A stretch of DNA of 64,000 nt from an uncultured Planctomycetota bacterium (lineage in GTDB: Bacteria; Planctomycetota; Planctomycetia; Isosphaerales; Isosphaeraceae): positions 1,216,001-1,280,000 of the forward strand of contig CAWGMQ010000008.1 in NCBI GenBank assembly GCA_963823665.1, in the 5' to 3' direction. The position numbers were made by a program, and so were the translations under genes. The stretch's first letter is position 1. Each line of letters begins with the position of its first letter. Under the pieces are notes generated by a model. It was not told the origin of the DNA and did not search any database. It saw nothing but the letters and a program-made list of their open reading frames with translations. Positions 8 to 32,889 of this stretch are shown piece by piece.

Positions 8-2965
8 ATGTCGCGACGAATCTGGCTGAGCGCGATCGTGGTGATCATGCCCACGGTGCTCCTGCCTCGCGAGGCTTTCGCGCAAGCAGCTCGTCCCCGC
101 GCGCGCGTTCCCTGGACAAGCTCGCGCTTCGCCGGCACACCCGACCCGCCGCCCCCTTTCACCGTCGCTCTCGCCTTTCCGAAACTGAAATTTGAATTCC
201 CGGTCGTGCTCGTCCCGGCCCAGGGAACGAGCCGGCTGTTCGTGGGTGAGTTGAAGGGACGCGTTTACTCGTTTCTCGATGATCCGGCCGAGCAAACGCC
301 CCGCCTCGCACTCGACTTGAACAAGGTCCATCCCGACTTCTCCGCGCTTTATGGTCTTGTATTTCATCCTCGATTCCAAACAAACCGGTATGTCTACATT
401 TGCTACGTGCGACGGAATGACGTGCCGGATGGATCAGTCGTTTCCCGATTCACCGTGAGCCGTACCGAGCCCCCGGTGATCGATCCGCAGAGTGAACAGG
501 TCATCCTCAACTTCTGGTCCGGAGGCCACAACGGCGGCTGCCTCGTTTTCGGTAAAGACGGATATCTTTATATTTCGACCGGCGACGGCGCGAGCCCGTC
601 GCCGCCGGACCCGAAGATGACAGGGCAGGACTGCTCGGATTTGCTTTCGAGCATCCTGCGGGTGGACGTGGATCGGTCGCAACCGGGCAGTGCGTATTCG
701 ATTCCGGCAGACAATCCGTTCAAGGACCTTGCGGGAGTCAGGCCCGAGATCTGGGCGTTCGGATTCCGGAACCCATGGAGGATGAGCTTCGACCGCAAGA
801 CAGGCGATCTATGGGTGGGTGACGTCGGCTGGGAGCTGTGGGAGCTGGTTGATAAAGTCGAGCGGGGCGGGAATTACGGATGGAGCGTGGTCGAAGGGCC
901 GCAGCCGGTCAACGTCGAAGCCAGGCGCGGGCCGACACCCATCCTGCCCACGACGAAGGCACATCCTCACTCGGAAGCGGCTTCGATCACCGGCGGCTAC
1001 GTCTACCGCGGCACAGGGCTGCCCGAGCTCACAGGTGCCTACATTTACGGCGACTTTCAAACCGGCATCATCTGGGCGCTGCGCGAAACGGGGGGAAAGG
1101 TTACCTGGCAGACCGAGCTGGCGCGGACGCCGCTCCACCTCGTGGCGTTCGCCGAAACGGACGGCGGCGAGCTCTTGCTGGTCGACCATGATCGAACGCA
1201 TCAGATCTACAGGCTGGTTCCTTCTCCTCCCAGCACATCTCGCAACACGTTTCCGCGCAAGCTGAGTGAGAGCGGGCTTTTCGCCTCGATGCGCGAAGGA
1301 AGACCTGCACCGGGTGTGTTGCGCTACGAAATCAACTCCGAGCTCTGGTCGGACGGGGCGGTCGCCGAACGGTTCCTGGCCATTCCGGGAAGCGGAACGA
1401 TCGGCGTCGATGGACAAGGCTTCTGGCAGTTTCCCGAAGGCTCGGTGCTGGCGCGGACGGTGTCACTCGAGCTCGAGCCCGGCAAGCGGGAAAGCCGCCG
1501 CCGGGTCGAAACCCAGATCCTGCACCGCGAATCCGAGGCCTGGCGGCCATATTCGTATCTCTGGAGCGATGGGCAGGACGACGCGGAACTGGTCGACGCA
1601 GGGGGTGCCACTCACACGATTACTGATGGCGCGCCACAGCCGCACAAGCGAACGTACCGGGTTCCCGCGCGGTCCGAGTGTGTCTTGTGCCATAACCCCT
1701 GGGTCGAGAAGAAGACGACGGTTTTCGGCATCCAGTCGGCGTCGCCGCTGGGGGTGAATATCGCCCAGCTCAACAAGCCGATCAAGCACTCCGGCCACGG
1801 AACGAACCAGCTCGCCGTCTTGCATGAGAGCCGGCATTCTGGCGTGGAAGCCGGACGTCGCAAAACTGCCCAGTCTGGTCAACCCGTACGACGAATCGGC
1901 CGATCTCGACCGCCGCGCGCGATCCTATCTCCAGACGAATTGCGCGCACTGCCACCAGTTCAACGCCGGTGGTACAGCGAACATCGCGCTGGGATTCGAA
2001 GTCCCGCTTCCTGCTACGCAGACCGTCGGAATCAGACCGATCCAGGGAACGTTCGGCATCGCTGCGGCCAGGATCATCGCGCCAGGTGATCCCGCGCGGT
2101 CGATTCTGTATTACCGCATGTCCAAGCTGGGCGGCGGACGAATGCCCCGCGCTGGCTCAAATCAGGTCGACGAGCGCGCGACGCGAATGATCGCCGATTG
2201 GATCGAGCGACTGAGCGTCCCTGGCGGAGCACCGGACGGGGCGGCGGTGCTTTCAAAGGAGGACCGCGACGCAATCGCCGCTTTGCGGGACTCCGATCAG
2301 CTTTCAGCCCAGCGCGCACGGCCGCAGTCCGCCGATTGGCCGAAACGACGCGCGGGGCATTGATGCTCCTGGGATTGATCGATCATGGAGCGGCTTCGTC
2401 TCCGCTCAGAAATGATGTCGCGGCGATCGCTCGCACGAGCCCGAGCGTGGAAGTCCGCGACCTGTTCGAACGATTCATTCCCGAGGAAGAGCGAGCAAAA
2501 AGGCTCGGTGACGTGATCGACCGGCCGAGCATCCTGGCGCTGGCCGGCGATGCGGCTCGTGGAAAGCTGGTCTTCACCGCCAATTCGGCCGCCCAGTGCA
2601 AGACATGTCACAAGGCCGGCGAGGTGGGCGAAACGGTGGGCCCGGACCTGAGTAAGATCGGCGCAAAGTACGACAAAGCGAAGCTGCTCGAGCAGATCCT
2701 TGAGCCGTCAAAGTCGATCGACCCAGCCTTCATCACCTATCTGCTCGAAACGAAAGACGGCCAGGTCATCTCGGGCTTGGCCGTCGAAAAGACAGCGACT
2801 GGCGTCGTGCTCAAGGACGCGCAGGGCAAGACGGTACGCCTGGCCAACGGCGAGATCGAGCGGATGGTTCCCCAGTCTCGATCGCTCATGCCCGAGCTGC
2901 TGCTCCGCGACCTCACGGCACAGCAGGTCGCCGACCTGCTCGCATTTCTGGCCGGGCTGCGGTGA
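8..2965 (+). CDS. PQQ-type glucose/sorbosone dehydrogenase beta-propeller fused to c-type cytochrome and heme-binding domains; two frameshifts (~1825, ~2310)
   Basis: HNGGCLVFGKDGYLYISTGDG, GFRNPWRMSFD and SITGGYVYRG propeller motifs; CxxCH motifs CVLCH, CAHCH, CKTCH; GPDLS...ILEPS...SLMP tail; spread over ORFs 8-2089, 1824-2363, 2198-2965. Confidence 0.85.
2822..2965 (+). repeat. Left copy of 144-bp duplicated gene end (island boundary)
   Basis: Aligns without gaps to 32746-32889; 24 mismatches by manual count; 40/47 aa identical. Confidence 0.9.
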
Positions 2966-3082
2966 TCTTCGCTCAGCCCAACTCGGCATTCCAAGCCGGT
3001 CAATCGCCAGCAAGTTCCTCCCCGCGCAAGCTTGCGCTCGCCTTCGTGTCCCAATCGTGGGAACAGCTCGAGCAGACCCCCC

Positions 3083-3205
3083 AAAACGTCGTCATCGTCG
3101 TCATCTCCTTGCAGCAACAGCACTTACGAATGACGACGTTTTTGAGGGCGAAAAGCGACTCGAAGCAACTCCTGAGCCCGTCATCACTTGCGAATGACGA
3201 CGCGG
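3083..3205. repeat. Iteron-like CGTCGTCAT cluster with 13-bp inverted repeat
   Basis: AAAACGTCGTCAT (3083-3095) / ATGACGACGTTTT (3130-3142); further copies near 3096, 3179 (partial) and 3196. Confidence 0.6.
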
Positions 3206-3715
3206 TATCGCTTGATGCGATGGTCGCGATCAAGCCATTCGCCGCCCCCGATCGTGGGCCCGGTACTCTTCGCCGACTCTCGCTCCCCCGACATCGCGCG
3301 CCCCACCTGCCCAAAGATTCCCATTTTTCTCCGGTACCCCCCCGTTCGGTCCCGCGCTCACCGCCGATCATCGCGAGACAGAGAAGAACGACGGCGTTCA
3401 CCAGTGTCATCGAGGGTGTGGAGTTACCTTCACTTCCATTGACCCAGGCCGCAAAGCGTGATCACGCAACATATTGGCACTGAATCCGACACCTGGTGGG
3501 TCCATTTTTCGGGCTCCGCCCAGGGAGGCGTTCGTTTTGTAGATTTGTCGCGCGTCCTTACGCCACAAGGCTTACGGGAACGGACACGCGCACTTTTGAC
3601 CGCGAGCCACGGGTCAAACTCGAACCGTCCCTCGCCCGCACGATCTCCCAGAGACAGAGTTGGTCCCGCGCGCCGACTCAACAGGCCTGGCTGTTTCTTC
3701 GTAGGGTGGGTGCAA

Positions 3716-5262
3716 CTACCCCTGTGAACATGCAGATGCGAAATTAGCTAAACTGTGATTCTACTATGCTTTGATCCCTTTGTTCCCGCGGCAGGGGCTC
3801 CGCGGGACTTGTCCAGGAGCTTCTTGGTGGCAACGTGATGAATCCTGCTCCCGGAAGTCTTTTTGGTCTTCCTGGGCTTCTTCGGGCCCCGTCGCGATCG
3901 GAGCATCCGGTCCACGGGCACCTTGGCGGCCAAGGCGCTGAGCAGTCCGGCCACTTCGCCCGCCACGCAGCCGTCCAGAAACGACCAAACCGACGGTGGT
4001 GCGGCAATCATCATCCCGGGGTAAACCTCGGCGATGTCATTGACCAGGGCGTGATTCGACACCTCATTGACCATCTCGTCGCCGTGGACCGCTCGCAGAT
4101 TCCCCTTCAAGACGGCCAAGCCGTTTCCGGCAATTACAGACATGGAGAAGCCGAACAGAGCTGCTCGAGGGTATCCCAGCGTGGGGATTTCGCAATGCAG
4201 AAGGTCGGTCAACTTCTGGAAGTGCTTCTCAATTTCCCATCGTCCGCAGTAGGCCTGGCAGCACAACTCCGCCGAGGCCGTGTCCGGGAGGTTAGTTATC
4301 AAGATGATCTCGGTCTCCCCGTCGCGGGTGGGTTGGTCCAACCTCAAGACGATCCGTCGCAGGCGATAGCGACGCCCCTCGCATTCCGGATCATCGACCC
4401 AGATTGCTTGCTCAAGAATCTCGCCGGCCTTGCAGCGTCCGACCGACCGCAACGGCTTGATCGCCTGGAACGGCATGGTGGAAGAATGCCAGCGGACCAA
4501 GAAGAACGCTTCGGTTCGCAGGATCCGAAACACGAAGCTCCGGACGCAGAAGTTACGATCCATGATCCAGAGCTGGCCCGGCGCGATGACCACCTGATCC
4601 AGCAGCGAGCGCTCCTGGGTGTGGGCGTTCTCCTCAAGGATGAGGTCGAGCACCAGGCCACTGACCGGCTCGTAAATGGCCAGCGACATGCCCGGCAGGG
4701 CCGCCGAACGAGTCGAGCGCAGTTCATTGATGCGATGATCGGTCCCTGTCAGGATATTGCCGTCGAGGATCCTTGCTGTATATCCCGGGATCGGCTCGGG
4801 CAGGAGGCAATCAGCAGCGGAGATGAGTTCGCGGGCTCGACTGGCGGTCTCTCGTACGATGGCGGCGGCTACGCCAGGTTCCATCCGACCCAGCTTGCGG
4901 TAGAAAGCGGACAGCGAAGCCACGAGGTGCAGTTGGCGCTTCAGGAATGCCTCCCGCGGGGAGCGCCGAAAGCCGCAGGCGACATCACACATCACCTGAA
5001 CGAAATGACCGAGCAAAAATTCTCGCGTGTATTGTCCCTCGGACACCTCATCAAGAATGGGGTCAATCGAAGTGCGTTCGATCATCCAATCCAGGGCGAT
5101 CCGGGCCATGACCGCCGGAGCTGCCTCCTCCGCGAATGGGTCGAGTTTGGATGGGAGAACCATTGGACCTCCTTGTCCGGACGAATTGATCCAGCGCGAA
5201 CCTACCAATCCTTTTCGGCAAAAGAGGTTATGACAATTAAATCTGCATGTTCACAGGGGTAG
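3716..5262 (-). mobile_element. IS4-family insertion sequence, 1547 bp
   Basis: 22-bp terminal inverted repeats CTACCCCTGTGAACATGCAGAT; 10-bp target duplication GTGGGTGCAA at 3706-3715 and 5263-5272. Confidence 0.92.
3748..5163 (-). CDS. IS4-family DDE transposase
   Basis: ILDG, IMDRNF and YCGRWEIEKHFQKL (YREK-like) motifs; GGAGG RBS before ATG at 5163. Confidence 0.92.
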   Translation of the reverse strand: MVLPSKLDPFAEEAAPAVMARIALDWMIERTSIDPILDEVSEGQYTREFLLGHFVQVMCDVACGFRRSPREAFLKRQLHLVASLSAFYRKLGRMEPGVAAAIVRETASRARELISAADCLLPEPIPGYTARILDGNILTGTDHRINELRSTRSAALPGMSLAIYEPVSGLVLDLILEENAHTQERSLLDQVVIAPGQLWIMDRNFCVRSFVFRILRTEAFFLVRWHSSTMPFQAIKPLRSVGRCKAGEILEQAIWVDDPECEGRRYRLRRIVLRLDQPTRDGETEIILITNLPDTASAELCCQAYCGRWEIEKHFQKLTDLLHCEIPTLGYPRAALFGFSMSVIAGNGLAVLKGNLRAVHGDEMVNEVSNHALVNDIAEVYPGMMIAAPPSVWSFLDGCVAGEVAGLLSALAAKVPVDRMLRSRRGPKKPRKTKKTSGSRIHHVATKKLLDKSRGAPAAGTKGSKHSRITV

Positions 5263-5322
5263 GTGGGTGCAACCCACCATCCATACTAACCCGAAGCGTA
5301 AGCGAGGATTCCGGTTAGTCTC
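5263..5322. repeat. REP-like palindromic elements (IS target remainder plus ACTAACCCGAAGCGTAAGCGAGG half-site)
   Basis: Pre-insertion site reconstructs as GTAG-GGTGGGT-GCA-ACCCACC hairpin; adjacent unit at ~5285-5307 resembles a planctomycete REP type. Confidence 0.6.
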
Positions 5323-6274: not shown

Positions 6275-9200
6275 GTTTCAATCCTTGTTGTCGTGGATCT
6301 CGGTCAACTGCGGCCGAAGTCACTCAGGCATCTCGTCGCGCCAGAAGGTTTCAATCCTTGTTGTCGTGGATCTCGGTCAACTGCTCGCCGCCCAAAGATC
6401 CTGCCGAATCGCTGCGGAAGAAGTTTCAATCCTTGTTGTCGTGGATCTCGGTCAACTGCAAGAAGATCGCCAACCCTGACGCGCGCCCGGTGATGTTTCA
6501 ATCAGTGTTGTCGTGGATCTCGGTCAACTGCTGCTCGGGATCACTGTTGAGTGTCCGAAACTTGGGAGTTTCAATCCTTGTTGCCGTGGATCTCGGTCAA
6601 CTGCGCCAACGAATCGCAGCTCTCAAGACGACCAGCAGAGTTTCAATCCTTGTTGTCGTGGATCTCGGTCAACTGCACGATGCCGCGATGGCCCAGGCTT
6701 TCTGGGCCTATGTTTCAATCCTTGTTGTCGTGGATCTCGGTCAACTGCTTGCGGCCTTCGGCCTGAATCAGGGCAGCGTGGCGAGTTTCAATCCTTGTTG
6801 TCGTGGATCTCGGTCAACTGCACGCTGCTCGGCAGCAATCAGATTTCCGTAACGTGGTTTCAATCCTTGTTGTCGTGGATCTCGGTCAACTGCCCCGGTC
6901 AAACTCAAGCAAGCCTCTCGAGCCAAGGTGGTTTCAATCCTTGTTGTCGTGGATCTCGGTCAACTGCAATATCCCTCCACTGGTCGGGGAATCGCGGATC
7001 GGGGTTTCAATCCTTGTTGTCGTGGATCTCGGTCAACTGCAGCAAACACGTTGCCGGGGAGATCGCGTGTGCTTGCGAGTTTCAATCCTTGTTGTCGTGG
7101 ATCTCGGTCAACTGCTCGTTCTGCGCCAGGGCCAGGGCGGCCTCCTTGGCGTTTCAATCCTTGTTGTCGTGGATCTCGGTCAACTGCCCGGATCATTGGA
7201 TGCGACGCTCGCGACCCAGTCAGGTTTCAATCCTTGTTGTCGTGGATCTCGGTCAACTGCCTGATTTACATCTCCGAGGGCGAGGACGAATCCAAGTTTC
7301 AATCCTTGTTGTCGTGGATCTCGGTCAACTGCCGGAGAGCTAATCGCCCAGAACATGGCCGGCATCGGGTTTCAATCCTTGTTGTCGTGGATCTCGGTCA
7401 ACTGCGTTCCGGCGCTCCCGTCCGGCCGCTCGAGGGTTTGGTTTCAATCCTTGTTGTCGTGGATCTCGGTCAACTGCACCTGAAGGGGTTTGCCTTCGGG
7501 AAAGCCGCTTGGGTTTCAATCCTTGTTGTCGTGGATCTCGGTCAACTGCAAGGCGACGAGCACTGGATTGACGGCACTCGTAAGAGTTTCAATCCTTGTT
7601 GTCGTGGATCTCGGTCAACTGCCTGTGCCCCTAACCCCGATTGGCCCAGCGCCTCGAGTTTCAATCCTTGTTGTCGTGGATCTCGGTCAACTGCGCGAAG
7701 AAACGGCGGGTGGCACGGAACAGCAGACCGGGTTTCAATCCTTGTTGTCGTGGATCTCGGTCAACTGCCCCGCGCACGCCACCGAAGCGGCTGCCGAATC
7801 AGAAGTTTCAATCCTTGTTGTCGTGGATCTCGGTCAACTGCCTGGCACAGTCGCGGGATGTCCTCTGGTTTCAGGTGTTTCAATCCTTGTTGTCGTGGAT
7901 CTCGGTCAACTGCTCGCATCAGCAGTCAGATCCGAGGAACTCCCAGATGTTTCAATCCTTGTTGTCGTGGATCTCGGTCAACTGCCGCTGCGCCGATCGC
8001 CGTCCATAGACCCGATCCTGAGTTTCAATCCTTGTTGTCGTGGATCTCGGTCAACTGCTTCTCTGCACCTCGCGCGACGAGCTCGCGTTTACCTTGTTTC
8101 AATCCTTGTTGTCGTGGATCTCGGTCAACTGCACGGCCTGCTCGAGATTCGGGCTCACTGGATCACCGGGTTTCAATCCTTGTTGTCGTGGATCTCGGTC
8201 AACTGCGCTCGGAATAAGCTGATTGAGGTCAGAAGAGCCGAGTTTCAATCCTTGTTGTCGTGGATCTCGGTCAACTGCGGGATCTCTGACGCTTTCTGCG
8301 GCAGCTACCCATATGTTTCAATCCTTGTTGTCGTGGATCTCGGTCAACTGCGCTGGACGAACATTAGTCTCTGATGCCCGCACTGGCGTTTCAATCCTTG
8401 TTGTCGTGGATCTCGGTCAACTGCAAGTAATTCGTAATTGTCCGAAAACTTGCATGGAAGTTTCAATCCTTGTTGTCGTGGATCTCGGTCAACTGCCGCC
8501 GCCTCCTCCACCCACTGCCGTTGATCGATCCAGTTTCAATCCTTGTTGTCGTGGATCTCGGTCAACTGCGGCGTCGCCATCGCACGGCCTGACTACGCCT
8601 CCATGATGTTTCAATCCTTGTTGTCGTGGATCTCGGTCAACTGGCGCGGTCACGATCCGGGCCCGGGAGCTGGATGTAGTTTCAATCCTTGTTGTCGTGG
8701 ATCTCGGTCAACTGCCCCGATCACATGCGTCCCTACCGGTAATGGCGTGGGGTTTCAATCCTTGTTGTCGTGGATCTCGGTCAACTGCGCGCGGGCCGCG
8801 CATCGCGAACCCCTACAAGGATCGGTTTCAATCCTTGTTGTCGTGGATCTCGGTCAACTGCCCCAGCAGGCCATGCAACTCGCGATCACCGCCCAGATGT
8901 TTCAATCCTTGTTGTCGTGGATCTCGGTCAACTGCCCGTACAACCACCATTTCTCGACCAGCTTTGTTATGTTTCAATCCTTGTTGTCGTGGATCTCGGT
9001 CAACTGCGCCGGTCAAGCTCCTCCTGCCGGGCCCGTTGCTCGGGTTTCAATCCTTGTTGTCGTGGATCTCGGTCAACTGCCCCTGCCCCATTTGCCTAAC
9101 CCGAGGGGGGAACCCAGTTTCAATCCTTGTTGTCGTGGATCTCGGTCAACTGCACCTGGAACCCCTGCGCCCGAAGCTCGAGCAGATTTTGTTTCAATCC

Positions 9201-12200
9201 TTGTTGTCGTGGATCTCGGTCAACTGCCAGCACAGGGGCGGCAGTGCTCATCTACGACAACGGTTTCAATCCTTGTTGTCGTGGATCTCGGTCAACTGCG
9301 GCGGGCACCGCCCCCGAAGTCGCCAAGGAGAAGCTGTTTCAATCCTTGTTGTCGTGGATCTCGGTCAACTGCGCGCGGCTGACGGTCGCCTCAGGCCTCA
9401 GCGAGCAGTTTCAATCCTTGTTGTCGTGGATCTCGGTCAACTGCCCGAGCGCCGGCACAACGAATGTACTCGTCAACGGGGGTTTCAATCCTTGTTGTCG
9501 TGGATCTCGGTCAACTGCACGTCGGTCGGGGTGAGTGGTCCGCTGCCGATGTCGGGTTTCAATCCTTGTTGTCGTGGATCTCGGTCAACTGCGGCTCTTG
9601 AGGTGCTCGGATCGGCGCAGCTAGATCGGTTTCAATCCTTGTTGTCGTGGATCTCGGTCAACTGCATCGATATCTTCCACCACAAAGAGCGTCCGGTCTG
9701 GGTTTCAATCCTTGTTGTCGTGGATCTCGGTCAACTGCACGTTTGCGGTGTCAGGGCATTCTTTGCGGTTTCGGTTTCAATCCTTGTTGTCGTGGATCTC
9801 GGTCAACTGCACGGCCCGGAAGCAATCGAGCGATGGAACGGCATGGGGTTTCAATCCTTGTTGTCGTGGATCTCGGTCAACTGCCTGCCTGTTCCGCCTT
9901 CCACTTCTCCCACACTTCACGGTGTTTCAATCCTTGTTGTCGTGGATCTCGGTCAACTGCGCTCGCGTGGGGGTGGTTGTGCGGGCCACCGGCACAGGTT
10001 TCAATCCTTGTTGTCGTGGATCTCGGTCAACTGCAGGGGGGATCATCGCTCATCCTCTTCAGGGCGCTTGGTTTCAATCCTTGTTGTCGTGGATCTCGGT
10101 CAACTGCCGACTAACTGACCTTCGTCGTCGTGATCGTGGGAAAGTTTCAATCCTTGTTGTCGTGGATCTCGGTCAACTGCATTCGTCGGCACCTACGCCG
10201 ACTGGCAGGCCCTGAGGTTTCAATCCTTGTTGTCGTGGATCTCGGTCAACTGCCAGATCAAAGTTCATGCTGGCCTCGCTGTTAGGGGGTGTTTCAATCC
10301 TTGTTGTCGTGGATCTCGGTCAACTGCCCGGGGGCGTCCCGTCTCACGCGCACGTTGTCGCCTGGTTTCAATCCTTGTTGTCGTGGATCTCGGTCAACTG
10401 CACGAATGTTTGGTGGTTATCACCGACGCCGGATTCAAGTTTCAATCCTTGTTGTCGTGGATCTCGGTCAACTGCAACTGTCGGAGCCGAATCCCATTTG
10501 CGAGCGGATGAGGTTTCAATCCTTGTTGTCGTGGATCTCGGTCAACTGCCTTGGCTATCTCGATTGCGACGAACGTTGAAAATGGGTTTCAATCCTTGTT
10601 GTCGTGGATCTCGGTCAACTGCACGTGAACCGGCTTTTGGCTGTGGATAAGCCGTTGAGGTTTCAATCCTTGTTGTCGTGGATCTCGGTCAACTGCAACC
10701 TTATCGGCTCGGCACCAGGCCCGGTTTAGGAACGTTTCAATCCTTGTTGTCGTGGATCTCGGTCAACTGCATGAGCGCCGCGAGCCACGGCACTTACTTC
10801 AACCGCGAGTTTCAATCCTTGTTGTCGTGGATCTCGGTCAACTGCTTGCGGGTTCGGTCACGAATGCCATCCATCTCCTTGGGTTTCAATCCTTGTTGTC
10901 GTGGATCTCGGTCAACTGCCGTCGATCGTTTTAATCGAGGATGTCGATGCGTTGTTGTTTCAATCCTTGTTGTCGTGGATCTCGGTCAACTGCAGGTGGA
11001 GCCTACTTCGCTGGCCTGACGCTCAGCTAGTTTCAATCCTTGTTGTCGTGGATCTCGGTCAACTGCTTGACGTGATGATCGGCGACCCGTCGTATTCCGG
11101 GTGTTTCAATCCTTGTTGTCGTGGATCTCGGTCAACTGCCTCATCGGCCAGGCGCAGCAGCTCCCCATACTTGATGTTTCAATCCTTGTTGTCGTGGATC
11201 TCGGTCAACTGCCTTGCGGATTCCGGAAGGTAGGCCGTTACGATCGGGGTTTCAATCCTTGTTGTCGTGGATCTCGGTCAACTGCCGCTGTAGCAGGTTC
11301 CTGGCGTCCCTCCGTTATTCGGAGTTTCAATCCTTGTTGTCGTGGATCTCGGTCAACTGCCAGACCCAGGCAGCACGGGCCATGATTGGCCCAAATAGTT
11401 TCAATCCTTGTTGTCGTGGATCTCGGTCAACTGCAAATGGGCCCATCCACCCCAAGACGGGGAGGCCAGTGTTTCAATCCTTGTTGTCGTGGATCTCGGT
11501 CAACTGCTTCCGCCAGCTCCCCCGAGTCCGCCCCTGCCCCAGGGGTTTCAATCCTTGTTGTCGTGGATCTCGGTCAACTGCTGGATGTACTCAGCGACCG
11601 TGAGCGCACGCTCTTGATGTTTCAATCCTTGTTGTCGTGGATCTCGGTCAACTGCCGGACCCGTCCGCCTCGGCGTTGACATCGCCCTGGGGTTTCAATC
11701 CTTGTTGTCGTGGATCTCGGTCAACTGCCCGGGCGAGCGCGTAGAGCTCGAGCCGGGATATGTGGAGTTTCAATCCTTGTTGTCGTGGATCTCGGTCAAC
11801 TGCGCCCCATTGGAGCTCCACAATGACGCCACCGAATAGGTTTCAATCCTTGTTGTCGTGGATCTCGGTCAACTGCTGGAGGAACTGATTGATGAGCGAC
11901 GAGAGCGAGAGGTTTCAATCCTTGTTGTCGTGGATCTCGGTCAACTGCGAAATCGGACGCCGCGCGGCACAGGCTGGCGATTGCGTTTCAATCCTTGTTG
12001 TCGTGGATCTCGGTCAACTGCGATTATCTCGTTCCATTCCTTGCCCGAAGAGAAAAGGTTTCAATCCTTGTTGTCGTGGATCTCGGTCAACTGCATCGAC
12101 TCCATCGAGCCTTACGGCGAAGCGCAAAATGTTTCAATCCTTGTTGTCGTGGATCTCGGTCAACTGCACGACCACGTTCTCGCCCCAAAATGAGCGTAGT

Positions 12201-16200: not shown

Positions 16201-16352
16201 GACAGGAATCTCCCCGGTCAACGGCGTCGTCCCGCTCGATCCAGCCGTAACCATGACTGACCGCGCGGCCCAAGGCGAAACCATTCGGCAAGTCGAGGTT
16301 GGTCAAGAGGCGGCCGCGAAACCAAAGGAATGGGGACGTCTAACTGCATCCT

Positions 16353-20530: not shown

Positions 20531-20543
20531 CGGATCGTTCTCC

Positions 20544-22493: not shown

Positions 22494-22494
22494 G

Positions 22495-23199: not shown

Positions 23200-23210
23200 T
23201 TACGCGCTCC

Positions 23211-23319
23211 GTTCATTTGCACGAGGGAAGCCGTCATCGTGGTAAAAGAATCCGTCGAGGAATGTGGCTCGAAAACACCAACATTTCAATCCTTGTTGTC
23301 TTGGACATCCGCATCGCCC
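23211..23319 (-). ncRNA. crRNA-like regulatory RNA (pseudo-repeat 23283-23319, spacer from 23282 downward; 3' end uncertain)
   Basis: TCCAAGACAACAAGGATTGAAAT matches 21 of the last 23 nt of the array repeat; spacer GTTGGTGTTTTCGAG matches 23832-23846. Confidence 0.85.
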
Positions 23320-23335
23320 GACGGATCCTCAGTTC

Positions 23336-23821
23336 TCAATATTCCGCGAATATCTTGCGCGCTCGCCGAATCTCGGAGTAGTATCGCCGCTCACTGATAT
23401 TGATCCTTTTCCGAAACTGCTCCCGGGTCAAACCTTCCCGCTCCGCGATGAGCAATTGGCGAAACAGCGGGATGCGATCGCACAGCTCTTTTGCATCCAA
23501 CTTCGAGATCATTGTCTCGCAATCCCGACTCGCGCTCTCATCTACGGCACTGATCGGGAGGGACTCATCGAGCTGAATCAATGGCGACCTCATGGCGCGG
23601 GCTCTCGCCCGTGCCCGTCTCCACAGCAAGCCAGGAATGTCCCCACCTTGAATGGTTGCACCACTCATTTTGAGAAATTGCTGAGTGGAGGAATGTCGCC
23701 GGATCTCACAGTAAAGATCGTGAGCGACGTCATCGGCGAACTCGGCGTAACGTGTCCTCCTGATGCGACTCGCGATCAGTTCGGTCAGGCGGACAACCGG
23801 GTCAGAGGTGCTCTCAGACAT
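23336..23821 (-). CDS. Divergent ECF sigma-factor-like protein inside the cas operon (161 aa)
   Basis: ADDVAHDLYCEI and GLLWRRAR resemble sigma2; EGLTREQFRKRINISERRYYSEIRRARKIF resembles sigma4 HTH; GGAG RBS 10 nt before ATG. Confidence 0.65.
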   Translation of the reverse strand: MSESTSDPVVRLTELIASRIRRTRYAEFADDVAHDLYCEIRRHSSTQQFLKMSGATIQGGDIPGLLWRRARARARAMRSPLIQLDESLPISAVDESASRDCETMISKLDAKELCDRIPLFRQLLIAEREGLTREQFRKRINISERRYYSEIRRARKIFAEY

Positions 23822-23831
23822 TTCACGGTCA

Positions 23832-23849
23832 CTCCAAAACCCCAACCAA
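23832..23849 (-). promoter_or_regulatory. Protospacer-like target of the crRNA-like RNA with TTG PAM
   Basis: TTG-GTTGGGGTTTTGGAG versus spacer GTTGGTGTTTTCGAG; mismatches only at positions 6 and 12. Confidence 0.85.
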
Positions 23850-23860
23850 CTTGCGCTCTA

Positions 23861-23904
23861 CCTTCGTTATGACGCCAGTCGGGGCTCCGTCCTTCGTTTT
23901 TTTT
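23861..23904 (-). promoter_or_regulatory. Putative ECF-type promoter of the sigma-cas6 operon
   Basis: A8 tract, then CGAAGG-N16-CGTCAT; AACGAAGG repeated 30 bp apart. Confidence 0.45.
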
Positions 23905-23989
23905 GGATTTTCGGCGCTCTGGCGAGCACTGCCACGTACGCATGCATGGTGACGCGTCACCACGCGATCGTCCTTCAATGAGTGCGGCG

Positions 23990-24280
23990 TCAGATCACTC
24001 TGGTCAGCACCTCGTCCGCCACCATCTCCCTATCAAACCCCTGCCCAACAATGCGGACCTTTGCGAAGTCGTCTCGGCACATGGGGAAGACATAGACCGC
24101 GTCCGTTTCGAGATTGAGAAGCTCCATGCTGAACTGAATGATTTCTTCAACGCGGCTGCCTGCGACCTCGCCCAGGTAGACGCTCTTTTGGACACGCTGG
24201 AGTCCATAATCGAGGCATCGGTCACCTATTCTTTTGCGCGTTCGATCCTTTGAAATGTCGTAGACGACCCAAGTCAGCAT
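23990..24280 (-). CDS. cas2: Cas2
   Basis: VVYDIS...GLQRVQKSVY; 96 aa; overlaps cas1 stop. Confidence 0.96.
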   Translation of the reverse strand: MLTWVVYDISKDRTRKRIGDRCLDYGLQRVQKSVYLGEVAGSRVEEIIQFSMELLNLETDAVYVFPMCRDDFAKVRIVGQGFDREMVADEVLTRVI

Positions 24281-25398
24281 GATTCGGCCTCCCCGGGCGG
24301 CTGTTCTGAGACGACGTCCTCTTCGTCATTGGGCAGCTCGTCGGCGGGCGGCGCGTCAGTGAACTCGTCCCAGAGTTGGCGGGTCGCGACGACACGAGGT
24401 AGGTCGTTCTTGCCCAGCAGACGATTCGCCAGCGCGTGTGCCTCGTGGGCAATTGTGTCGCGACGCTTGATCTTGCGGAACTTACCTGGCTTCGATTGCA
24501 CCGGGTACTTTACCGGCCGGTCGAGCCGCTGGTTGTAGTAAGGTATGAACTCGGCGCGGCCGGCTTTACTCAATGCAACCCCGCCAGGCACGTGCTCGAA
24601 AAACTCGGCGCGAACTCGGCGGCCCGTGAACAAAAGCAGCGTCGCCCGCTCGGCCAGGATACGGAACGGCTCGATCAAATCAAAAACAAGCGAAGGCTTG
24701 TTGTAATTGTCAGTGTGAAGATACCCCAGAAATGGGTCAAGGCCAGCACATATGCAAGCGCGATCGACCATTGAATAGAGGACGCCGTACGAGTAGTTGA
24801 GCATCGCGTTGAAGCCATCGTGAGCGGGCTGGCGGCTGCGTCCGTCGAAGCGGTAAGCCTCGGGGACGAGCTGGCCCAGGCAGGCGAAATAGGCGCGGCC
24901 CGCGCTCCCTTCCAGGCCGAGCAGCCGCCCACGTTGTTGCTCAAGCGTGCCATCGATTTTATCGACCTGCGCCAGGCTCGAGCGAATCGACTCGATCGCC
25001 GTCGCGAAGATCGTGCGCTGGCCAGACCTGCGCTGCGACAGCTCGTCAAGAAACTCAGCCTGGTTGCGGATTTTGGCGGCGACCCATTCGCGAGCAAAGG
25101 CCAGTCCTTCAGGACCCTCCGCCGTCTCGAGCTGCCGCCGCCGTATGGCCGCCGTCGAACCCATTCGCGGCGGCCAGACCCGCGCGTAAGGGTCGCCGAA
25201 CTTGTCCAGGAAGATGACGTCGATATTGTGCGCAATGGCCAGCACGATCACATCGGAGGAGAGGTGCACGGCCGTGGTCACCAGAATGCTCTGGACCTTA
25301 TGCGCCGAGACCGTCATCTTGTTCGACCCGGCCCGGACCACGAACCGGTCGCCCTTGCGCTTGAGACTCGCCCCAAAGGTGTTGATCACCAATTGCAC
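24274..25398 (-). CDS. cas1: Cas1 with acidic C-terminal tail
   Basis: LLGLEGSAGRAYF, FNAMLNYSYGVL, GLDPFLGYLH, SLVFDLIEPFR. Confidence 0.97.
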   Translation of the reverse strand: MQLVINTFGASLKRKGDRFVVRAGSNKMTVSAHKVQSILVTTAVHLSSDVIVLAIAHNIDVIFLDKFGDPYARVWPPRMGSTAAIRRRQLETAEGPEGLAFAREWVAAKIRNQAEFLDELSQRRSGQRTIFATAIESIRSSLAQVDKIDGTLEQQRGRLLGLEGSAGRAYFACLGQLVPEAYRFDGRSRQPAHDGFNAMLNYSYGVLYSMVDRACICAGLDPFLGYLHTDNYNKPSLVFDLIEPFRILAERATLLLFTGRRVRAEFFEHVPGGVALSKAGRAEFIPYYNQRLDRPVKYPVQSKPGKFRKIKRRDTIAHEAHALANRLLGKNDLPRVVATRQLWDEFTDAPPADELPNDEEDVVSEQPPGEAESC

Positions 25399-26110: not shown

Positions 26111-26289
26111 GCGTCGCTCGCGGGGGAGGGAAACAGGGTCGCGATTAGTTAGTCTATGAATCTGACCGCTGGATATTGGAAACGTGGTCAGGTCCGGATT
26201 GCTCATAGAGCGCCCCCAAGGACACAGCCCAGCTTATGGACGCTCCATAAGACCTGTTCCTCAACTTGATGACCCGGTGTTTGACGGAC

Positions 26290-26636
26290 TCGATCTACGA
26301 CACGGTCGACGAGCGAGTGCGGGCCGAGGGTCGAGACTGGCCGGCCCGGGCGCACACGATGATCGGCTTCAAACGGTTGGCTAATATTCGAACGTGCGTC
26401 GAGGCGGTTCTGGACGACGGCGTCCCAGGCGATTTGATCGAGACCGGCGTCTGGCGCGGCGGGGCGGCGATCTTCATGCGGGCGATCCTCAAGGCACGCG
26501 CGGTCACCAACCGCGTCGTGTGGGTCGCCGACTCGTTCTCCGGGCTTCCACCACCAGACACAGCCCGGTATCCGCAAGACGAGGGCATCACCCTTCACCA
26601 ATCTCCCCAGTTGGCCGTGCCGCTCGAACGCGTGCA
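26290..26636 (+). pseudogene. Internal fragment of TylF/MycF O-methyltransferase
   Basis: EGRDWP...HTMIG...GVPGDLIETGVWRGG...VADSFSGLP; C-terminal half replaced by unrelated sequence. Confidence 0.8.
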
Positions 26637-26928: not shown

Positions 26929-28815
26929 TCAATTGGAGTCGGAATTGGCATGGTCCGCACCCAGGTGCCGGCGGACCACCTCCGCCTCTCGCCCAAGCTC
27001 GCGGGCATGGTTCGTCTCGCCAAGGGCGCGCGCCGTTTCGCTCGAGTTGCTGAGGACGTCCGCCAGCTCTTTCTGCGACCGAGCGTCGCCGGCCTCGAGT
27101 TGGATGCATCGCCGCAGATGCTTGACGGCCCTCTCATACGCCCACTCGGCCTCCGGCAACCGGTCTGTATTCACAAAAAGGTCACCGAGCCGGTGGTACG
27201 CTCCGGCGAGCGATTGCAGGCTGTCATGCCGGTCGGGTTGTGCGCGAACGGTTGCATCGCCCGCCTGCACGGCCCGTCGAAGCTCTGCCTCAGCCGAACG
27301 ATTGACGGCGAGACGAAGCACCCGGCGATTCTCTCCATCGAGAGCCGCCACCGGTGCATTCCCGGAAAGGGGCCCAATTCTGCCGTAGCGAATTGCCAGT
27401 AGAGCTGCTGACGCACCCACCGCCGAGGCCGTGACTGCGAGAAAAGCCATGAGGAACACCAACCGATGGCGGCGACAAAAGCGAGTTACATGCGCCCACG
27501 CCCCCGGCGCACGGGCGGAAATCGGGCTGCCACTCTGGAATCGACGGAGGTCGTCCGCCATGTCTCGGGCCGTGGCGTAGCGTTTGCGAGGGTCTCTCGC
27601 CATCGCCGTGAGACAAACGGTTTCGAGGTCGCGCGGGACCGTGGGATTCAACCGCCTGGGAGGCACTGGCTCGGCGGTCCTGAGGAGCTGCATCGTCTCG
27701 AAGACATCGGGGCCAGGGAACGGGGCCTCTCCGGTAAGAAGCGCGTAGAGCGTTGCACCAAGGCTATAAACATCGGTGGCAGGACCGACCGCGTCGAGTC
27801 GCCCTTCTGCCTGCTCCGGGCTCATGTAGCTCGGGGTACCAACGATCTGGCCGGCATGGGAAAGCGTTGCCTCGGCACTATCAACCCAGGAACGAGCCAG
27901 GCCGAAATCGATCAGGTGCGGCCATAGTTCCTGGTCGATCAAGATGTTCGATGGTTTGACGTCGCGATGGACGATGCCCAAGCTGTGCGCGTAATGAATG
28001 GCGTCGGCAACACGCGCGATGATCCCAGCCAGATCATTGGGGGCAAGCCGACCGTGCGGTCGTGCGTACTCGGAGAAACTCTTGCCCTCAACGAACTCGC
28101 TGACGATGTAAGGCATGCCATTGACCTGGCCGATGTTGTAGATCTGTGCGATCGATGGATGCTTGAGACTGGCCGAGATCCGGGCCTCACGGAAGAGCCG
28201 GTTCATGCGGTCATCATGTACACTGCCGAACTCGCGAATGATCTTGATGGCAACAATCCGGTCGAGCGCGACATCGCGCACCTTGAATACGACTCCCATG
28301 CCGCCGGTCCCGATCCGTTGGATGATCTGATAATCGCCGAAAGTGGCCGGCACGTCAGACCAGCTTCCGGCCGTACTCACTCCGAGATCAAGCGGGCGCG
28401 TGGAACCGGCTGACGGGTACGAGCCAACCGTGTCTGCTGGATCGGCGATACTGTCGGCCATCCAGGCCTGGGAGGCCAATAGGGCGTTCGGGGCATGGGA
28501 CCTCGTGGATTGGGAATCCACGCGGAGACCAATCCCAGTAACGGACGCCTCCGAGACTGAAACGCTATCGGGGACGGGCCTGTCCACGGAGTTTTGCTCG
28601 ACGTCTTCGAGCGTTTCCTCGTTCTTCCAGCCCGTCGGCTCCGGTTCCTCGACCGCGCGCCCGACGACATGGCCAATCGCACGCTCGGCGGCCTGGCACT
28701 GAGGGCATGACGCGATGTGCAGGCGCTCGCGGGCTCGCCAGGAGTCGCCTCCGGCGACCTCCCAGAACCGGCTGGGCGCAGGGCACGGTGGTGTGTCACC
28801 CGTTTCGGAAGTCAT
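26929..28815 (-). CDS. Hanks-type Ser/Thr kinase with N-terminal HxxxCxxC motif, TM segment and TPR-like C-terminus
   Basis: GTGGMGVVFK, VAIK, HRDVKPSN, DFG, GTPSYMSPE; HIASCPQC. Confidence 0.92.
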   Translation of the reverse strand: MTSETGDTPPCPAPSRFWEVAGGDSWRARERLHIASCPQCQAAERAIGHVVGRAVEEPEPTGWKNEETLEDVEQNSVDRPVPDSVSVSEASVTGIGLRVDSQSTRSHAPNALLASQAWMADSIADPADTVGSYPSAGSTRPLDLGVSTAGSWSDVPATFGDYQIIQRIGTGGMGVVFKVRDVALDRIVAIKIIREFGSVHDDRMNRLFREARISASLKHPSIAQIYNIGQVNGMPYIVSEFVEGKSFSEYARPHGRLAPNDLAGIIARVADAIHYAHSLGIVHRDVKPSNILIDQELWPHLIDFGLARSWVDSAEATLSHAGQIVGTPSYMSPEQAEGRLDAVGPATDVYSLGATLYALLTGEAPFPGPDVFETMQLLRTAEPVPPRRLNPTVPRDLETVCLTAMARDPRKRYATARDMADDLRRFQSGSPISARAPGAWAHVTRFCRRHRLVFLMAFLAVTASAVGASAALLAIRYGRIGPLSGNAPVAALDGENRRVLRLAVNRSAEAELRRAVQAGDATVRAQPDRHDSLQSLAGAYHRLGDLFVNTDRLPEAEWAYERAVKHLRRCIQLEAGDARSQKELADVLSNSSETARALGETNHARELGREAEVVRRHLGADHANSDSN

Positions 28816-29419
28816 GGCCGTTGTGCGATTCCCCGTCACGCCCGCGAACTTTCAAGATCAGGCGCTTGAGCTCCTTGCGGGCACGATTGAGACGACTGTT
28901 GAACGCAGCAAGGGAGATTTCCAGTGCTTGCGCGATATCGTACTGGGTTCCTTCCTTCCGGAGGTAGTATCGCTCGAGGACGTCTCGCTCCTCATCCGAC
29001 AGTAAACTCAGCGCGAGATCAAGCTTGCGACTCCTCTCCGCCTCGATCATCGCGCCCAACGGATCGCGGGCCTTATGATCGACCGGCACCGCCGAATGCG
29101 ATCCCCGCGAGCTCTCCCTCTCCGCTCGCGCGCTCAAGTCATCGAGGCTGATCGAGTTACTCTCCTTCGCCCGCCAGCAATCAAGAATGAGCCGACGTGC
29201 AGTCGTGAACACCCACGCACGGGCGTGAGGATGCCTGGGATCGAATTTCTCGTCGGTCCAGGCTTGCAAGAACGTCGCCTGCACAATGTCCTGGGTTAGA
29301 TGGTCGGACCCGACCCGGCTCCGGACAAAACCGCGGAGCTCGTTTTCGTGAGTGCGCACGAACGCCACAAATGCCTGCTGCCTCTCCGGTTGGGGAAAAG
29401 CCGCGCCGTTGAGCCCCAT
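28796..29419 (-). CDS. ECF RNA polymerase sigma factor, overlapping the kinase start
   Basis: QDIVQATFLQAW, AWVFTTARRLILD, TQYDIAQALEISLAAFNSRLNRARKEL. Confidence 0.9.
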   Translation of the reverse strand: MGLNGAAFPQPERQQAFVAFVRTHENELRGFVRSRVGSDHLTQDIVQATFLQAWTDEKFDPRHPHARAWVFTTARRLILDCWRAKESNSISLDDLSARAERESSRGSHSAVPVDHKARDPLGAMIEAERSRKLDLALSLLSDEERDVLERYYLRKEGTQYDIAQALEISLAAFNSRLNRARKELKRLILKVRGRDGESHNGHDFRNG

Positions 29420-30010
29420 CGTTGAGTTCCCCTCGAGGTGCCGAGATCGCGGTGTGACCGCGAACCATCAATCCTGCGCGAGTATAGGGTCGAGTGCGCA
29501 ATTCCTTTCCGATTATTTTCCCGAAGCTCAAAAAATATAGCTTCGGCGAACCCGCCCGGTTCACTGTCCATTCACAGTTCAGAAAAAAGAAAGGCTCCAC
29601 GCGTTCGACCATATTCAGTGGTGTTGAACGGAGTGGTCCGGCCGGATCGAGTTTTCAGACCTGACCGGACGCGGCACGAGGCGAGGCTCCATGCCCGCAG
29701 GTGCACCACATTCCGTGCACTCGATCGCTTTTTGACCGGTTTTCAGTCCATTGTACGGAGATCAACCCATGCGCGACCATTCGGATACGCACATCGATCG
29801 GGGCCCAGATCAGACCTCATATTGCGACTGGTCCAACCCGATGCCCTGGGAGCTACCCACATCGACCGACAACCGTGACAGGTCTGCGCCGACGCCGACC
29901 ATGCCGCGTGATGCGACGAAAAGCTGGCCAGGTTCCCCTTCCGAGCCGATTCGCAGATTCCAAGCCGATGGATCGATCACACAGACCGAGTACCGCACGC
30001 CCGAGCCGGA

Positions 30011-30658
30011 GTGCGCCCCACGCCTTCGCAACGAAGCGCGACCAGGTCTCGCGTCATTTCCCTCGTCGGGAACACGTCGACGGCACTTGGATTGGCGATC
30101 TTGCTCGGTTTGTTCGTCGGACCGCGCACCGTGATGCGGAGAGCCGAAGAGGCTGCGTTCGCCTCGTGGAGAGCGGTTGGCGATGCACTCGCGAACCGCG
30201 AGCTTGGCGAGATTTCAGAACAACTGGACCGCGATCGGCACGATGCAGAGTGTCTTCGTTCCTTGCGAGACTCCCTCTGGGCGCGATTGGAATCGCTCGC
30301 GATGCAGCGCGAGCGTGTCGTGCTCGAACTCAGAACCCGCGGACCGCGGCTTGCTTGCGATTCCGATTGTGAATTGCCGCGCCTGGACGCCGCGATTGCC
30401 CTGGTGAATTCCGCGATTGCACGCGCCGACCGTGCGCTGGACGGGACCAGAGAAGATCTGCGCGGGCGCGAGGTCGAGTTGATCACGCTCCAGGCCGAGG
30501 CGGACTTGAACCGCGCAAACCTCGTGCTAGCCAAACCGATTGGCGACCCGATGCTGTGGTCGACCCGGATCGCGCGCGTCCGCGACCTGCTCGGGACCCC
30601 GCTCGACGATCGCGACGTGCGCCGCAGCGCTCTCGAATCGCCTATCAGCGGCGAGTGA
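30011..30658 (+). CDS. Hypothetical membrane-anchored coiled-coil protein
   Basis: Hydrophobic LGLAILLGLFVG followed by long helical R/E/L-rich region; start uncertain. Confidence 0.5.
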   Translation: MRPTPSQRSATRSRVISLVGNTSTALGLAILLGLFVGPRTVMRRAEEAAFASWRAVGDALANRELGEISEQLDRDRHDAECLRSLRDSLWARLESLAMQRERVVLELRTRGPRLACDSDCELPRLDAAIALVNSAIARADRALDGTREDLRGREVELITLQAEADLNRANLVLAKPIGDPMLWSTRIARVRDLLGTPLDDRDVRRSALESPISGE

Positions 30659-30765
30659 CATCCTCGACAAGTGTGGCGTTGGGTCCGACCGACTTCAACC
30701 TGCGCGACACAACCCACTTCGGCTGGCTCCGCCACGCCGCCGCGAAGTCGTGTTCCTCCGCGCCC
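30655..30765 (-). pseudogene. Short fragment of dihydrofolate reductase/RibD_C-family gene
   Basis: EHDFAAAWRSQPKWVVSRRLKSVGPNATLVEDV. Confidence 0.6.
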
Positions 30766-30819
30766 CAACGCCTCTCGTGAAGGGAGGGTCTACGCACACC
30801 ACGATTCCCGCTCTCAGTC

Positions 30820-31150
30820 CTACTCGAGTCGAGCCACACCATTCCCCGGCTTCGGGAACCGGACGAACACCTCCGGGTCGTGTCCCGGGATGATCAATCG
30901 AGGGTTGGTCGCGAGCTGCTTCATCCGGTCCTGCGCAGCCAGGTTTGACTTGGCGTCGAGCGTAACCGCGATCGGCACGTGCTTGTCGAGGTTCTCGTAC
31001 AGATAGACGTTGTCCGACGCCACCACCATGCGGCCCGACTTCGTATTTACGCCCACGTACTGCGACGCGAACGTGTGCTTCCCTCCGGCGTAAACCGTCA
31101 CTCCCAGTATGATCTCCTTGGCATCGCCGTCGACCAGACGAACACGGCTC
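30820..31150 (-). pseudogene. C-terminal fragment of AHL-lactonase-like metallo-beta-lactamase
   Basis: VDGD...GGKHTFASQ...VVASDNVYLYENL...IIPGHDP; HxHxDH half absent. Confidence 0.7.
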
Positions 31151-31270: not shown

Positions 31271-31618
31271 ATGGCAAAAGCGCCCGCTCAGAAGCCCGTG
31301 TTTTGGCTTAAGACTGAAGTCAAGACGCCTCCGTACTCGAAAGCGGCCAGGGTGGAAGCGGGGATGCTGCTTCGTCGTCTCCAGAGGGGCGAGTCACTCG
31401 GGATGCCGCACTCGCGTCCCATGTCGACTATCGGCACGCGTTGCCACGAACTTCGGGTGCGCGACGAGAACCGGGGTTGGCTGCTCATTTACCGGATCGA
31501 CCCTGACGCAATCGTTGTCGCGGTGGGATTCTTGAAGACAACCGAGCAGACGCCTGATTCGGTTATAGACAAGGCGAAAAAGCGCCTGCGGGAGTACGAC
31601 GACGTTGAATCAAAATAA
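31271..31618 (+). CDS. RelE/ParE-superfamily (HigB/Gp49-like) toxin
   Basis: LGMPHSRPM...CHELRVRD...IYRID...FLKTTEQTP. Confidence 0.88.
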   Translation: MAKAPAQKPVFWLKTEVKTPPYSKAARVEAGMLLRRLQRGESLGMPHSRPMSTIGTRCHELRVRDENRGWLLIYRIDPDAIVVAVGFLKTTEQTPDSVIDKAKKRLREYDDVESK

Positions 31619-31632
31619 TAGGAAATATAATT

Positions 31633-32133
31633 ATGAATGCGCGGAAGAAAAAGGCGCTCGCTGCGGCCGGATGGGTCTCAGGCGACGCCGAAGACTACCT
31701 CGAGCTCAGCGCGGAGGAACGTTGTCTGGTTGAATTGCGCCTCGCGGTCAGCCAGGCTATGCACTATCGACGCAAACAGGGCAACCTCACCCAGCAGGAT
31801 GTGGCCAAGAAATTAGGGACGAGTCAGTCGCGCGTCGCGAGGATGGAAGCTGCATCCTCGGACGTGTCACTCGACTCGCTGTTTACGGGGCTGTTTGCTC
31901 TTGGCGGAAGCATGAAGGATCTCGCGGGAGGGCCCCCGAGCGGGAATGTCTTACCGCCCAGCACGCCCAGCACGCGCGGCGTGAAATATAGGATCAAAGG
32001 GACCGTGAAAGCCAAGTCGACGGCTCGCGACAGCGGGATCTACAGGATGGTCGAGACCGCGAAAGGTAAAGCCATGAAGACAGGATCATCGGCCCGTGCC
32101 GCGCGCGGGGGAAAACTCTTTCCGAAGAAATAG
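31633..32133 (+). CDS. XRE-HTH antitoxin with basic C-terminal extension
   Basis: LTQQDVAKKLGTSQSRVARMEA HTH directly after the toxin. Confidence 0.85.
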   Translation: MNARKKKALAAAGWVSGDAEDYLELSAEERCLVELRLAVSQAMHYRRKQGNLTQQDVAKKLGTSQSRVARMEAASSDVSLDSLFTGLFALGGSMKDLAGGPPSGNVLPPSTPSTRGVKYRIKGTVKAKSTARDSGIYRMVETAKGKAMKTGSSARAARGGKLFPKK

Positions 32134-32178
32134 CGGGCGATCGGCTCGCGGGCGGCAGCTCGGCGGCCGGGCAGGGGG

Positions 32179-32760
32179 TCAGGCGACCGGACAGGCGAGG
32201 ATCTGGTGGATCGCCCCGGGGCGCCAAACGGCGCCCGTCTTGGTTTCAATGCCCAGCTCCTCGAGTTGCGAAACCATATCGCGGTACGTTTTGTCCTGCG
32301 CCTTCCATCGCTTCATGAAGTCGATCGCTCGTTGCTCGACCGGATCGGGAACGAGCGTCTTCCCGTCCGCGGCGAGGACGTATCCGAATCGGACGCGGCC
32401 GCATCGCTCGCCTCGGGCGATCTTCCCCTGCAGCGCGTTCGCGGGGCGGTACGCGGTTTCCCCCCGCTCCCATTGCGCGACGGTGATGATCATGTTGAGA
32501 ACCATCCGGCCCGACGGCGTGCGGGTGTCGATCGAGTCGTTGAGGCTGAAGAGACGTCTGCCCGCCTTGTCGCTGAAGAAACGCTGGATCAGATCGTCCC
32601 AATCCCGCAGTGACCTGGTCAGACGGTCAAGCTTCATGATCACCACGCCGTCGACCGTCCCGCGCTCGAGCTCGTCGATAACGACCCCGAGGGCCTCGCG
32701 GTCGAGCGTCTTCGCCGACACTCCCGCGTCCCGCTCGATCCGCGCCAGGGCAAGACGGTA
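32179..32760 (-). pseudogene. 5'-truncated serine recombinase (resolvase family)
   Basis: DAGVSAKTLDR, KLDRLTRS, IDTRTPSGRMVLN, GRVRFGY; catalytic YxRVS N-terminus missing at the duplicated-gene junction. Confidence 0.85.
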
Positions 32761-32889
32761 CGGTGGTCAAACTGCGAGATCGAGCGGTTGGTTCCTCAAT
32801 CGCGATCGCTGATGCCGGAGCTGTTGCTGCGCAACCTGACGGCGCAGCAGGTTGGGGATCTGCTCGAGTTTCTGGCGGGGCTGCGGTGA
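32746..32889 (+). repeat. Right copy of duplicated gene end (orphan 47 codons plus stop)
   Basis: QGKTVRWSNCEIERLVPQSRSLMPELLLRNLTAQQVGDLLEFLAGLR*. Confidence 0.9.

Follow-up and report, generated by a model that had tools for sequence, protein, structure and literature searches.

The last 144 nucleotides (nt) of a gene encoding a heme-binding protein of the glucose/sorbosone dehydrogenase (GSDH) family occur twice in a 64,000-nt stretch of an uncultured planctomycete genome of the Isosphaeraceae (assembly GCA_963823665.1, contig CAWGMQ010000008.1, positions 1,216,001 to 1,280,000; hereafter the window), once in place and once as an orphan about 30 kb downstream, with a complete type I-B CRISPR-Cas locus and other accessory genes in between. 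An earlier reading of this DNA (the original prediction) took the interval for a single 30-kb CRISPR island integrated in the 3' end of the gene. We arrive at a different account, which we consider probable though by no means certain: an insertion hotspot would here combine two haplotypes from congeneric lineages, brought together through homology-facilitated illegitimate recombination in one of two possible directions. The locus lacks three features of integrase islands for which we tested and behaves like a C-terminal displacement by illegitimate recombination. The window comes from a 16.5-Mb genome with planctomycete marker families, 91.9% complete and with a contamination estimate of 3.48%.

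Two coding copies of the gene end

Copy A (2822-2965) and copy B (32746-32889) each comprise 47 codons and the stop codon, in frame. They differ at 24 of 144 nt, distributed over codon positions 1, 2 and 3 as 6, 3 and 15, with 13 synonymous and 7 nonsynonymous codon differences; the first 17 nt are identical, as originally described, and further identical runs of 14 and 12 nt lie deeper in. The pair is the sole long non-CRISPR direct repeat within the window (blastn E 4e-37), and no third copy of the gene end was found in a genome search with 2600-3200 (40 of 130 candidates scored). Here and below, DNA searches of the genome scored part of the candidates, and searches of family genomes scored 2 or 4 candidates per genome. 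In neutral simulations with 24 random changes, at least 13 synonymous codons were reached in 0 of 5000 runs (mean 4.8), so the synonymous excess is not due to chance and both copies have mostly diverged as coding DNA, as had been proposed. The direct repeat stands at both borders and leaves the gene intact, as in an island with a replacement end, and the site is a non-tRNA one, the window containing no tRNA or tmRNA gene. The identical 17-nt start has P = 0.037 given 24 mismatches, a value that does not yet allow for the choice of boundary (where matching starts); alone, the 17-nt run is poor evidence for an att core.

Phylogenetic analysis placed A, B and the gene end of the congener G001 in one clade (98/98), but did not settle the order within it, and approximately unbiased (AU) tests rejected none of the alternative groupings (p 0.51 for A with the congener, and 0.45). 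At fourfold degenerate sites, A is no closer to the congener (11/25 differences) than B (8/24). We also tried to read the direction from a grouping of B with the congener, which had support of 89/64 with 21 rows and of 71/33 after the frameshifted row G073 was removed, and rejected it. The stop codon and flank of copy B match the native flank of the orthologue in G062 at 21 of 24 nt, which makes B a natural gene end, lifted together with its context. That A and B evolved as coding sequence in different lineages is supported, and to this extent the proposal that one copy arrived from another lineage holds; either copy may be the newcomer.

A recombinase gene broken at the right junction

The right junction is a break inside a serine recombinase gene, which the original prediction did not mention. 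About 50 codons are missing from the start of the gene, and the catalytic YxRxS motif with them. The closest homologue (91%), a protein of 244 aa, has the motif, which is kept in 108 of 120 recombinase homologues. Up to and including the 17-nt core the recombinase frame is open and homologous; it ends immediately behind the core, with homology reaching 15 nt into copy B, and we infer that the core may represent the microhomology of the join. Using the full-length homologue as query, we did not find the N-terminus as a separate piece elsewhere in the genome, and the opposite border does not carry the other half of the gene, as that of a split integrase would. An N-terminus antisense on copy A, as an excised circle would restore it, was considered and rejected; the frame is open there, but it has no recombinase start. 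Proteins starting at residues 50-59 of the full-length homologue are rare (1/120 proteins, 1/100 loci), which gives no recurrent break codon, and a piece of the host gene, cas1, ydeI or sulP was found at none of 100 recombinase-homologue loci, most of them 30-55% alike and some with short flanks. The junction is therefore best read as an accidental join inside the recombinase gene.

The junction exists outside the long-read assembly, since it is crossed by a short-read contig of 386 nt (run X1, record 7) that spans 32641-33026 with one different letter and no gap. Run X1 may be the source sample and counts as another assembly rather than a second strain; the check covers the right junction, where it speaks against the chimera named beforehand as a possible refutation. 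The same run also holds exact pieces of the kinase cluster and the recombinase. No listed piece from runs X2, X3 and X5 crosses the junction; runs with a small share mostly reflect a widespread cassette. None of these runs is evidence either way.

No relative of the recombinase was found among viral contigs. One intact homologue (L077) adjoins a second resolvase and a terminase gene, and another (L078) a HigB toxin-antitoxin pair, which suggests phage-related elements as the source of these two recombinases.

Comparison with relatives

Both genomes of the genus (G000, G001) are about 16 Mb, very large for bacteria. In G001, the only congener (84% complete), the host gene is followed by 2.3 kb of G001's own genes, the equivalent of window 26939-30643 and, about 67 nt later, ydeI. 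This kinase cluster is 77.8% identical over 3716 nt, in the same place and orientation, and its fourfold divergence (127/370) equals that of 10 flanking segments of our own choosing (902/2632, p 1.0). Part of the supposed island thus shows vertical synteny at orthologue-level divergence, which goes some way toward the ancestral synteny that was to speak against the original prediction. The second gene end, the cas genes and the recombinase are absent from the retrieved G001 locus. The expected empty site is found in other genera, where 8 of 19 orthologous family loci have sulP no more than 1.5 kb beyond the gene end; the gap is therefore an insertion hotspot that was ancestrally empty. Several family genomes contain cas-like DNA at 65-82% (2 candidates scored per genome), which in G062, G065 and G066 lies on a contig other than that of the host gene, or 300 kb away. 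Horizontal acquisition of the CRISPR-Cas system, as first proposed, is retained in part: the system is absent from this congener locus and was probably acquired, but as one of several insertions, and its loss in the congener is also conceivable.

The interpretation as one 30-kb unit inserted at a 17-bp site does not survive these results. The kinase cluster is syntenic, so that 3.7 kb of the content is present at the orthologous site; no intact integrase stands beside an att site, the serine recombinase being without its catalytic N-terminus; and the recombinase family does not recur at this target gene (0/100 homologue loci, of the limited similarity and flank length given above).

A further departure from the predicted geometry lies in the host gene itself. 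Fourfold differences to the congener number 122/366 before ~2127 and 69/138 after it (permutation p 0.017), and 58/113 in the diverged tract without its last 144 nt (Fisher p 0.0008 at the chosen break). The over-diverged stretch thus covers the last ~850 bp of the gene and starts ~700 nt upstream of the 17-nt core, which a 144-nt replacement end does not predict. The change point suggests that one of the two genomes acquired its gene end through homologous recombination. Whichever genome this was, the tract is a candidate for the homologous anchor, drawn from a third congeneric lineage, and fits a left-anchored event at some time. Attempts to assign it to one genome through outgroups or base composition favoured neither side clearly.

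A probable joining of two haplotypes

We infer a mechanism and two parental haplotypes from how the locus is built, from the truncated recombinase gene, whose codons overlap the core, and from the synteny and the coding history of both copies. In the scenario we favour, the gap between the heme/GSDH gene and ydeI-sulP would be a hotspot whose contents vary by lineage. One haplotype would have carried the gene ending in A, followed by an insertion sequence (IS) and repeats, CRISPR-Cas, the kinase cluster, the cassette piece, the toxin-antitoxin pair and the recombinase element; the other would have carried the gene ending in B, an orphan open reading frame (ORF) and ydeI. Ordinary RecA recombination in the conserved backbone may have joined them at one end. 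At the other end, a crossover would have taken place 144 nt ahead of the host-gene stop codon, where the antisense strand of the recombinase gene would share ~15 nt of microhomology with the host gene; this would have removed the recombinase N-terminus and left B orphaned. Either ~30 kb would have entered anchored on the left, in which case B is native and was displaced as the C-terminal end, or ~1 kb consisting of B and the orphan ORF would have entered anchored in ydeI/sulP. The CRISPR block probably came separately, perhaps with the 850-bp diverged tract as its anchor; that the whole ~30-kb block, CRISPR-Cas included, entered in one integrase-free C-terminal displacement seems to us doubtful. 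A ComEC/Rec2 DNA-uptake gene (39858-42467) lies 7 kb away from the hotspot, within the conserved backbone, and a DprA gene is also present in the genome. Ku, of nonhomologous end joining, was not found in this 91.9%-complete genome.

Several observations weigh against this scenario. Neither parental haplotype has been seen, and none of 120 other family genomes has a relative of the orphan ORF. With DNA of the parent recombinase unavailable, the core was compared with a 75%-identical homologue (L076), which agrees at 11 of 15 core positions; over 35 nt the agreement is 21/35, where the best chance matches reach 25/35. A splice leaves unexplained both the 17-nt identity and a 10-bp perfect inverted repeat across the junction, of a kind seen in 0 of 300 random 120-nt windows in a post hoc comparison. 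The early tree support for B with the congener fell once the frameshifted row was removed, and the change point in the host gene is modest and may belong to the congener's history. The ComEC and DprA genes do not show competence. Illegitimate recombination was rare in the experiments described in PMC5361080 and PMC6382021, and short fragments dominate transformation as described in PMC12359135, which speaks against the 30-kb direction and fits the short one.

Other explanations account for part of these observations. A decayed island with a replacement 3' end, of the icd or tRNA type, would correspond to the original prediction if it had integrated at the 17-nt core in the ancestor of the genus, lost its integrase and gained the CRISPR block, with later loss of the right end in the congener. 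Its geometry would resemble attL/attR with an extended identity block, which reaches ~250 bp at icd as described in PMC10111431; identity is longest at the very start of the repeat, empty sites occur among the family loci, and a grouping of A with the congener is compatible with the tree. We nevertheless regard it as improbable, as none of the 20 tyrosine-integrase (Phage_integrase) matches in the genome falls in the window, the arm beside the right core belongs to the interior of a different recombinase gene, the retrieved congener locus has no second gene end, A is no closer to the congener than B, and the diverged tract runs ~700 nt past the core.

Similarly improbable is a full second copy of the gene, whether an old tandem paralogue or a whole foreign copy, that used to precede the orphan ORF until a microhomology deletion shortened it and fused it to the recombinase gene. 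It draws on the same junction evidence and would account for the coding history and native-type flank of B, but no retrieved family locus compared with the window has two nearby copies, and it requires two events where one suffices.

A 30-kb circle, formed in a donor by microhomology deletion between recombinase and host genes, moved to a congener and inserted by one RecA crossover at the longest identical run of the 144-nt homeology, yields the same final map and accounts for the 17-nt run at the junction. This, too, we think unlikely: a Pfam scan of the ORFs in the interval shows no replication or transfer gene although transfer is needed, the crossover must occur in 83%-identical DNA, and the upstream diverged tract is left out of account. 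A donor as diverged as A also predicts a kinase cluster more diverged than its flanks, which this one is not (127/370 versus 69/138 in the host-gene tract, p 0.0015).

Far less probable is a scenario in which the serine recombinase itself made the join by acting on a site within its own coding sequence, with the two halves of the 10-bp inverted repeat as binding arms. The element would then be self-splitting and targeted to the heme-protein gene, and the 850-bp tract would later have replaced its left end, repairing the gene and introducing CRISPR-Cas. Finally, an assembly chimera of two strains in the long-read metagenome bin, to which the single-base errors, several split genes and the contamination estimate might point, is hardly credible given the short-read contig across the junction and the exact pieces of kinase cluster and recombinase in the same run.

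Contents of the interval

The features of the window are listed in Table 1. The host gene product has ~1000 aa and its start lies just ahead of the window; relative to the congener, whose ORF is unbroken (1007 aa), the gene is split over three frames by 1-nt indels near 1828 and 2312 (seen in alignment blocks), which are possibly assembly errors. An extra base at 30015 is seen in three of four runs, so at least some of the frameshifts (cas3, the aminotransferase, the host gene and 30015) are assembly errors; that of the aminotransferase lies in 35634-37033.

Table 1. Positions of the genes, repeats and junction features described in the text.
Feature	Position	Strand	Remark
Host gene, glucose/sorbosone-dehydrogenase-family protein with C-terminal heme-binding (CxxCH) domains	1..2965	+	Pfam GSDH and Cytochrom_C, TIGR02603
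Over-diverged 3' tract of host gene	2127..2965	+	Fourfold-site differences to G001
Copy A of the 144-nt gene end	2822..2965	+	In place, completes the host gene
Short dispersed repeat like a miniature inverted-repeat transposable element (MITE)	3022..3251		Many copies here and in congener
IS4-family element, 25-nt terminal inverted repeats	3713..5265	-	Two other genome copies at 100% identity
Genome-resident repeated segment	5376..6256		With 3471-3716, matches contig C10 at 92-94%
CRISPR array	6275..15392		125 repeats of 37 nt (4 variants), 124 distinct spacers of 34-39 nt
Type I-B cas genes	15565..25398	-	Profile matches; full set including array
cas4	15565-16284	-	Type I-B block
cas3, split into two ORFs	16353-18852	-	Type I-B block
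cas5	18711-19598	-	Type I-B block
cas7b	19598-20578	-	Type I-B block
cas8b	20544-22493	-	Type I-B block
cas6b	22495-23199	-	Type I-B block
cas2	23990-24280	-	Type I-B block
cas1	24274-25398	-	Type I-B block
TylF-family methyltransferase fragment	26222..26636	+	83% to congener locus elsewhere
Kinase cluster (Ser/Thr kinase, extracytoplasmic function (ECF) sigma factor, unknown gene)	26939..30655		Synteny with congener
Lactonase-like cassette piece, 493 nt, cut at both ends	30656..31148	-	Fused at stop codon of last cluster gene; cassette 95-98% identical across genera
Gp49/RelE-like and helix-turn-helix (HTH) toxin-antitoxin pair	31271..32133	+	80% to congener locus on another contig
Serine recombinase gene (Resolvase and Recombinase domains)	32179..32760	-	Truncated, see text
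10-bp perfect inverted repeat across the junction	32731-32740 and 32778-32787		One arm in recombinase, one in copy B
17-nt core: start of copy B and, antisense, recombinase codons Y-R-L-A-L	32746..32762	+	Homologue reads Y-G-L-D-L
Copy B, orphan gene end with natural 3' flank	32746..32910	+	Stop and flank match native flank of G062 orthologue
Orphan ORF, 112 aa	33012..33350	+	No Pfam or NCBIfam match
ydeI/OmdA and sulP, conserved downstream backbone	33741..35641	-	Also in relatives

The identical copies of the IS4-family element elsewhere in the genome point to a recent local insertion. The neighbour of the array end (6048-6256) is repeated here and in the congener, abuts a copy of the cassette on contig C6, and resembles what we take to be the start of a tyrosine transposase associated with repetitive extragenic palindromic (REP) sequences. 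A lone degenerate CRISPR repeat was noticed by eye between cas6 and cas2, at about 23283-23305. The spacers, compared with the window and not with phages, gave no match beyond about 20 nt with mismatches, none of them meaningful. GC content is 58.9% in the cas region and 62-64% in the flanks; GC content and skew are too weak for setting borders.

The junction between the stop codon of the kinase cluster and the cassette is another few-base fusion, near the right junction. The parent cassette of ~1.3 kb is 92-99% identical among several genera of the family (loci L142-L152) and has a second copy in this genome; its first ~110 nt occur at very high abundance in soil runs and presumably resemble part of a dihydrofolate-reductase-like gene.

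Comparison with known systems

The CRISPR-Cas locus has everything by which type I-B is recognised, namely Cas7b/Cst2/DevR, Cas8b, Cas5, Cas6b, Cas3, Cas4, Cas1 and Cas2 and an array of 125 repeats. Unlike in a typical type I-B locus, cas3 lies in two ORFs, possibly through an assembly error, and cas1-cas2 stand upstream of cas6. As in the integrative elements with a replacement attP sequence at icd and tRNA genes described in PMC10111431, the 3' end of an intact gene is repeated around an accessory block; here, however, an intact integrase is lacking, the inner arm consists of a disrupted gene for a serine recombinase, and part of the content is vertical with the congener. For island calling this is a caution: when a gene end is duplicated around accessory genes and the copies have diverged synonymously, the pattern mimics attL/attR and can be the scar of illegitimate recombination between relatives.

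Similar in form is the C-terminal displacement of effector and immunity genes in Rhs and Vibrio type VI secretion system (T6SS) loci, where a new 3' end and downstream genes stand behind a conserved 5' gene, the old end is orphaned downstream, and no integrase is involved; for these displaced orphan ends, illegitimate recombination is proposed in PMC5361080. The host gene here differs from those arrays in encoding a metabolic heme protein, with ends that are 83% alike rather than different toxin tips, and with a single orphan and no immunity genes. If the left-anchored direction is true, a planctomycete would have naturally gained a complete CRISPR-Cas locus through displacement of the C-terminal end of an ordinary metabolic gene, with no integrase taking part.

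Homology-facilitated illegitimate recombination is known in Acinetobacter, Streptococcus and Pseudomonas, and in the accounts given in PMC4437187, PMC2884548 and PMC6382021 it shares with the proposed reading of the present locus homologous DNA on one side, a short microhomology join of unrelated sequences on the other, and loss of DNA at the join. The join here differs in lying in a recombinase gene, antisense to the host gene end. The insert, if the left direction is right, would be ~30 kb, far above the few kb that are usual for this process. On this reading, the locus is a further case of a known recombination process, not a new mechanism.

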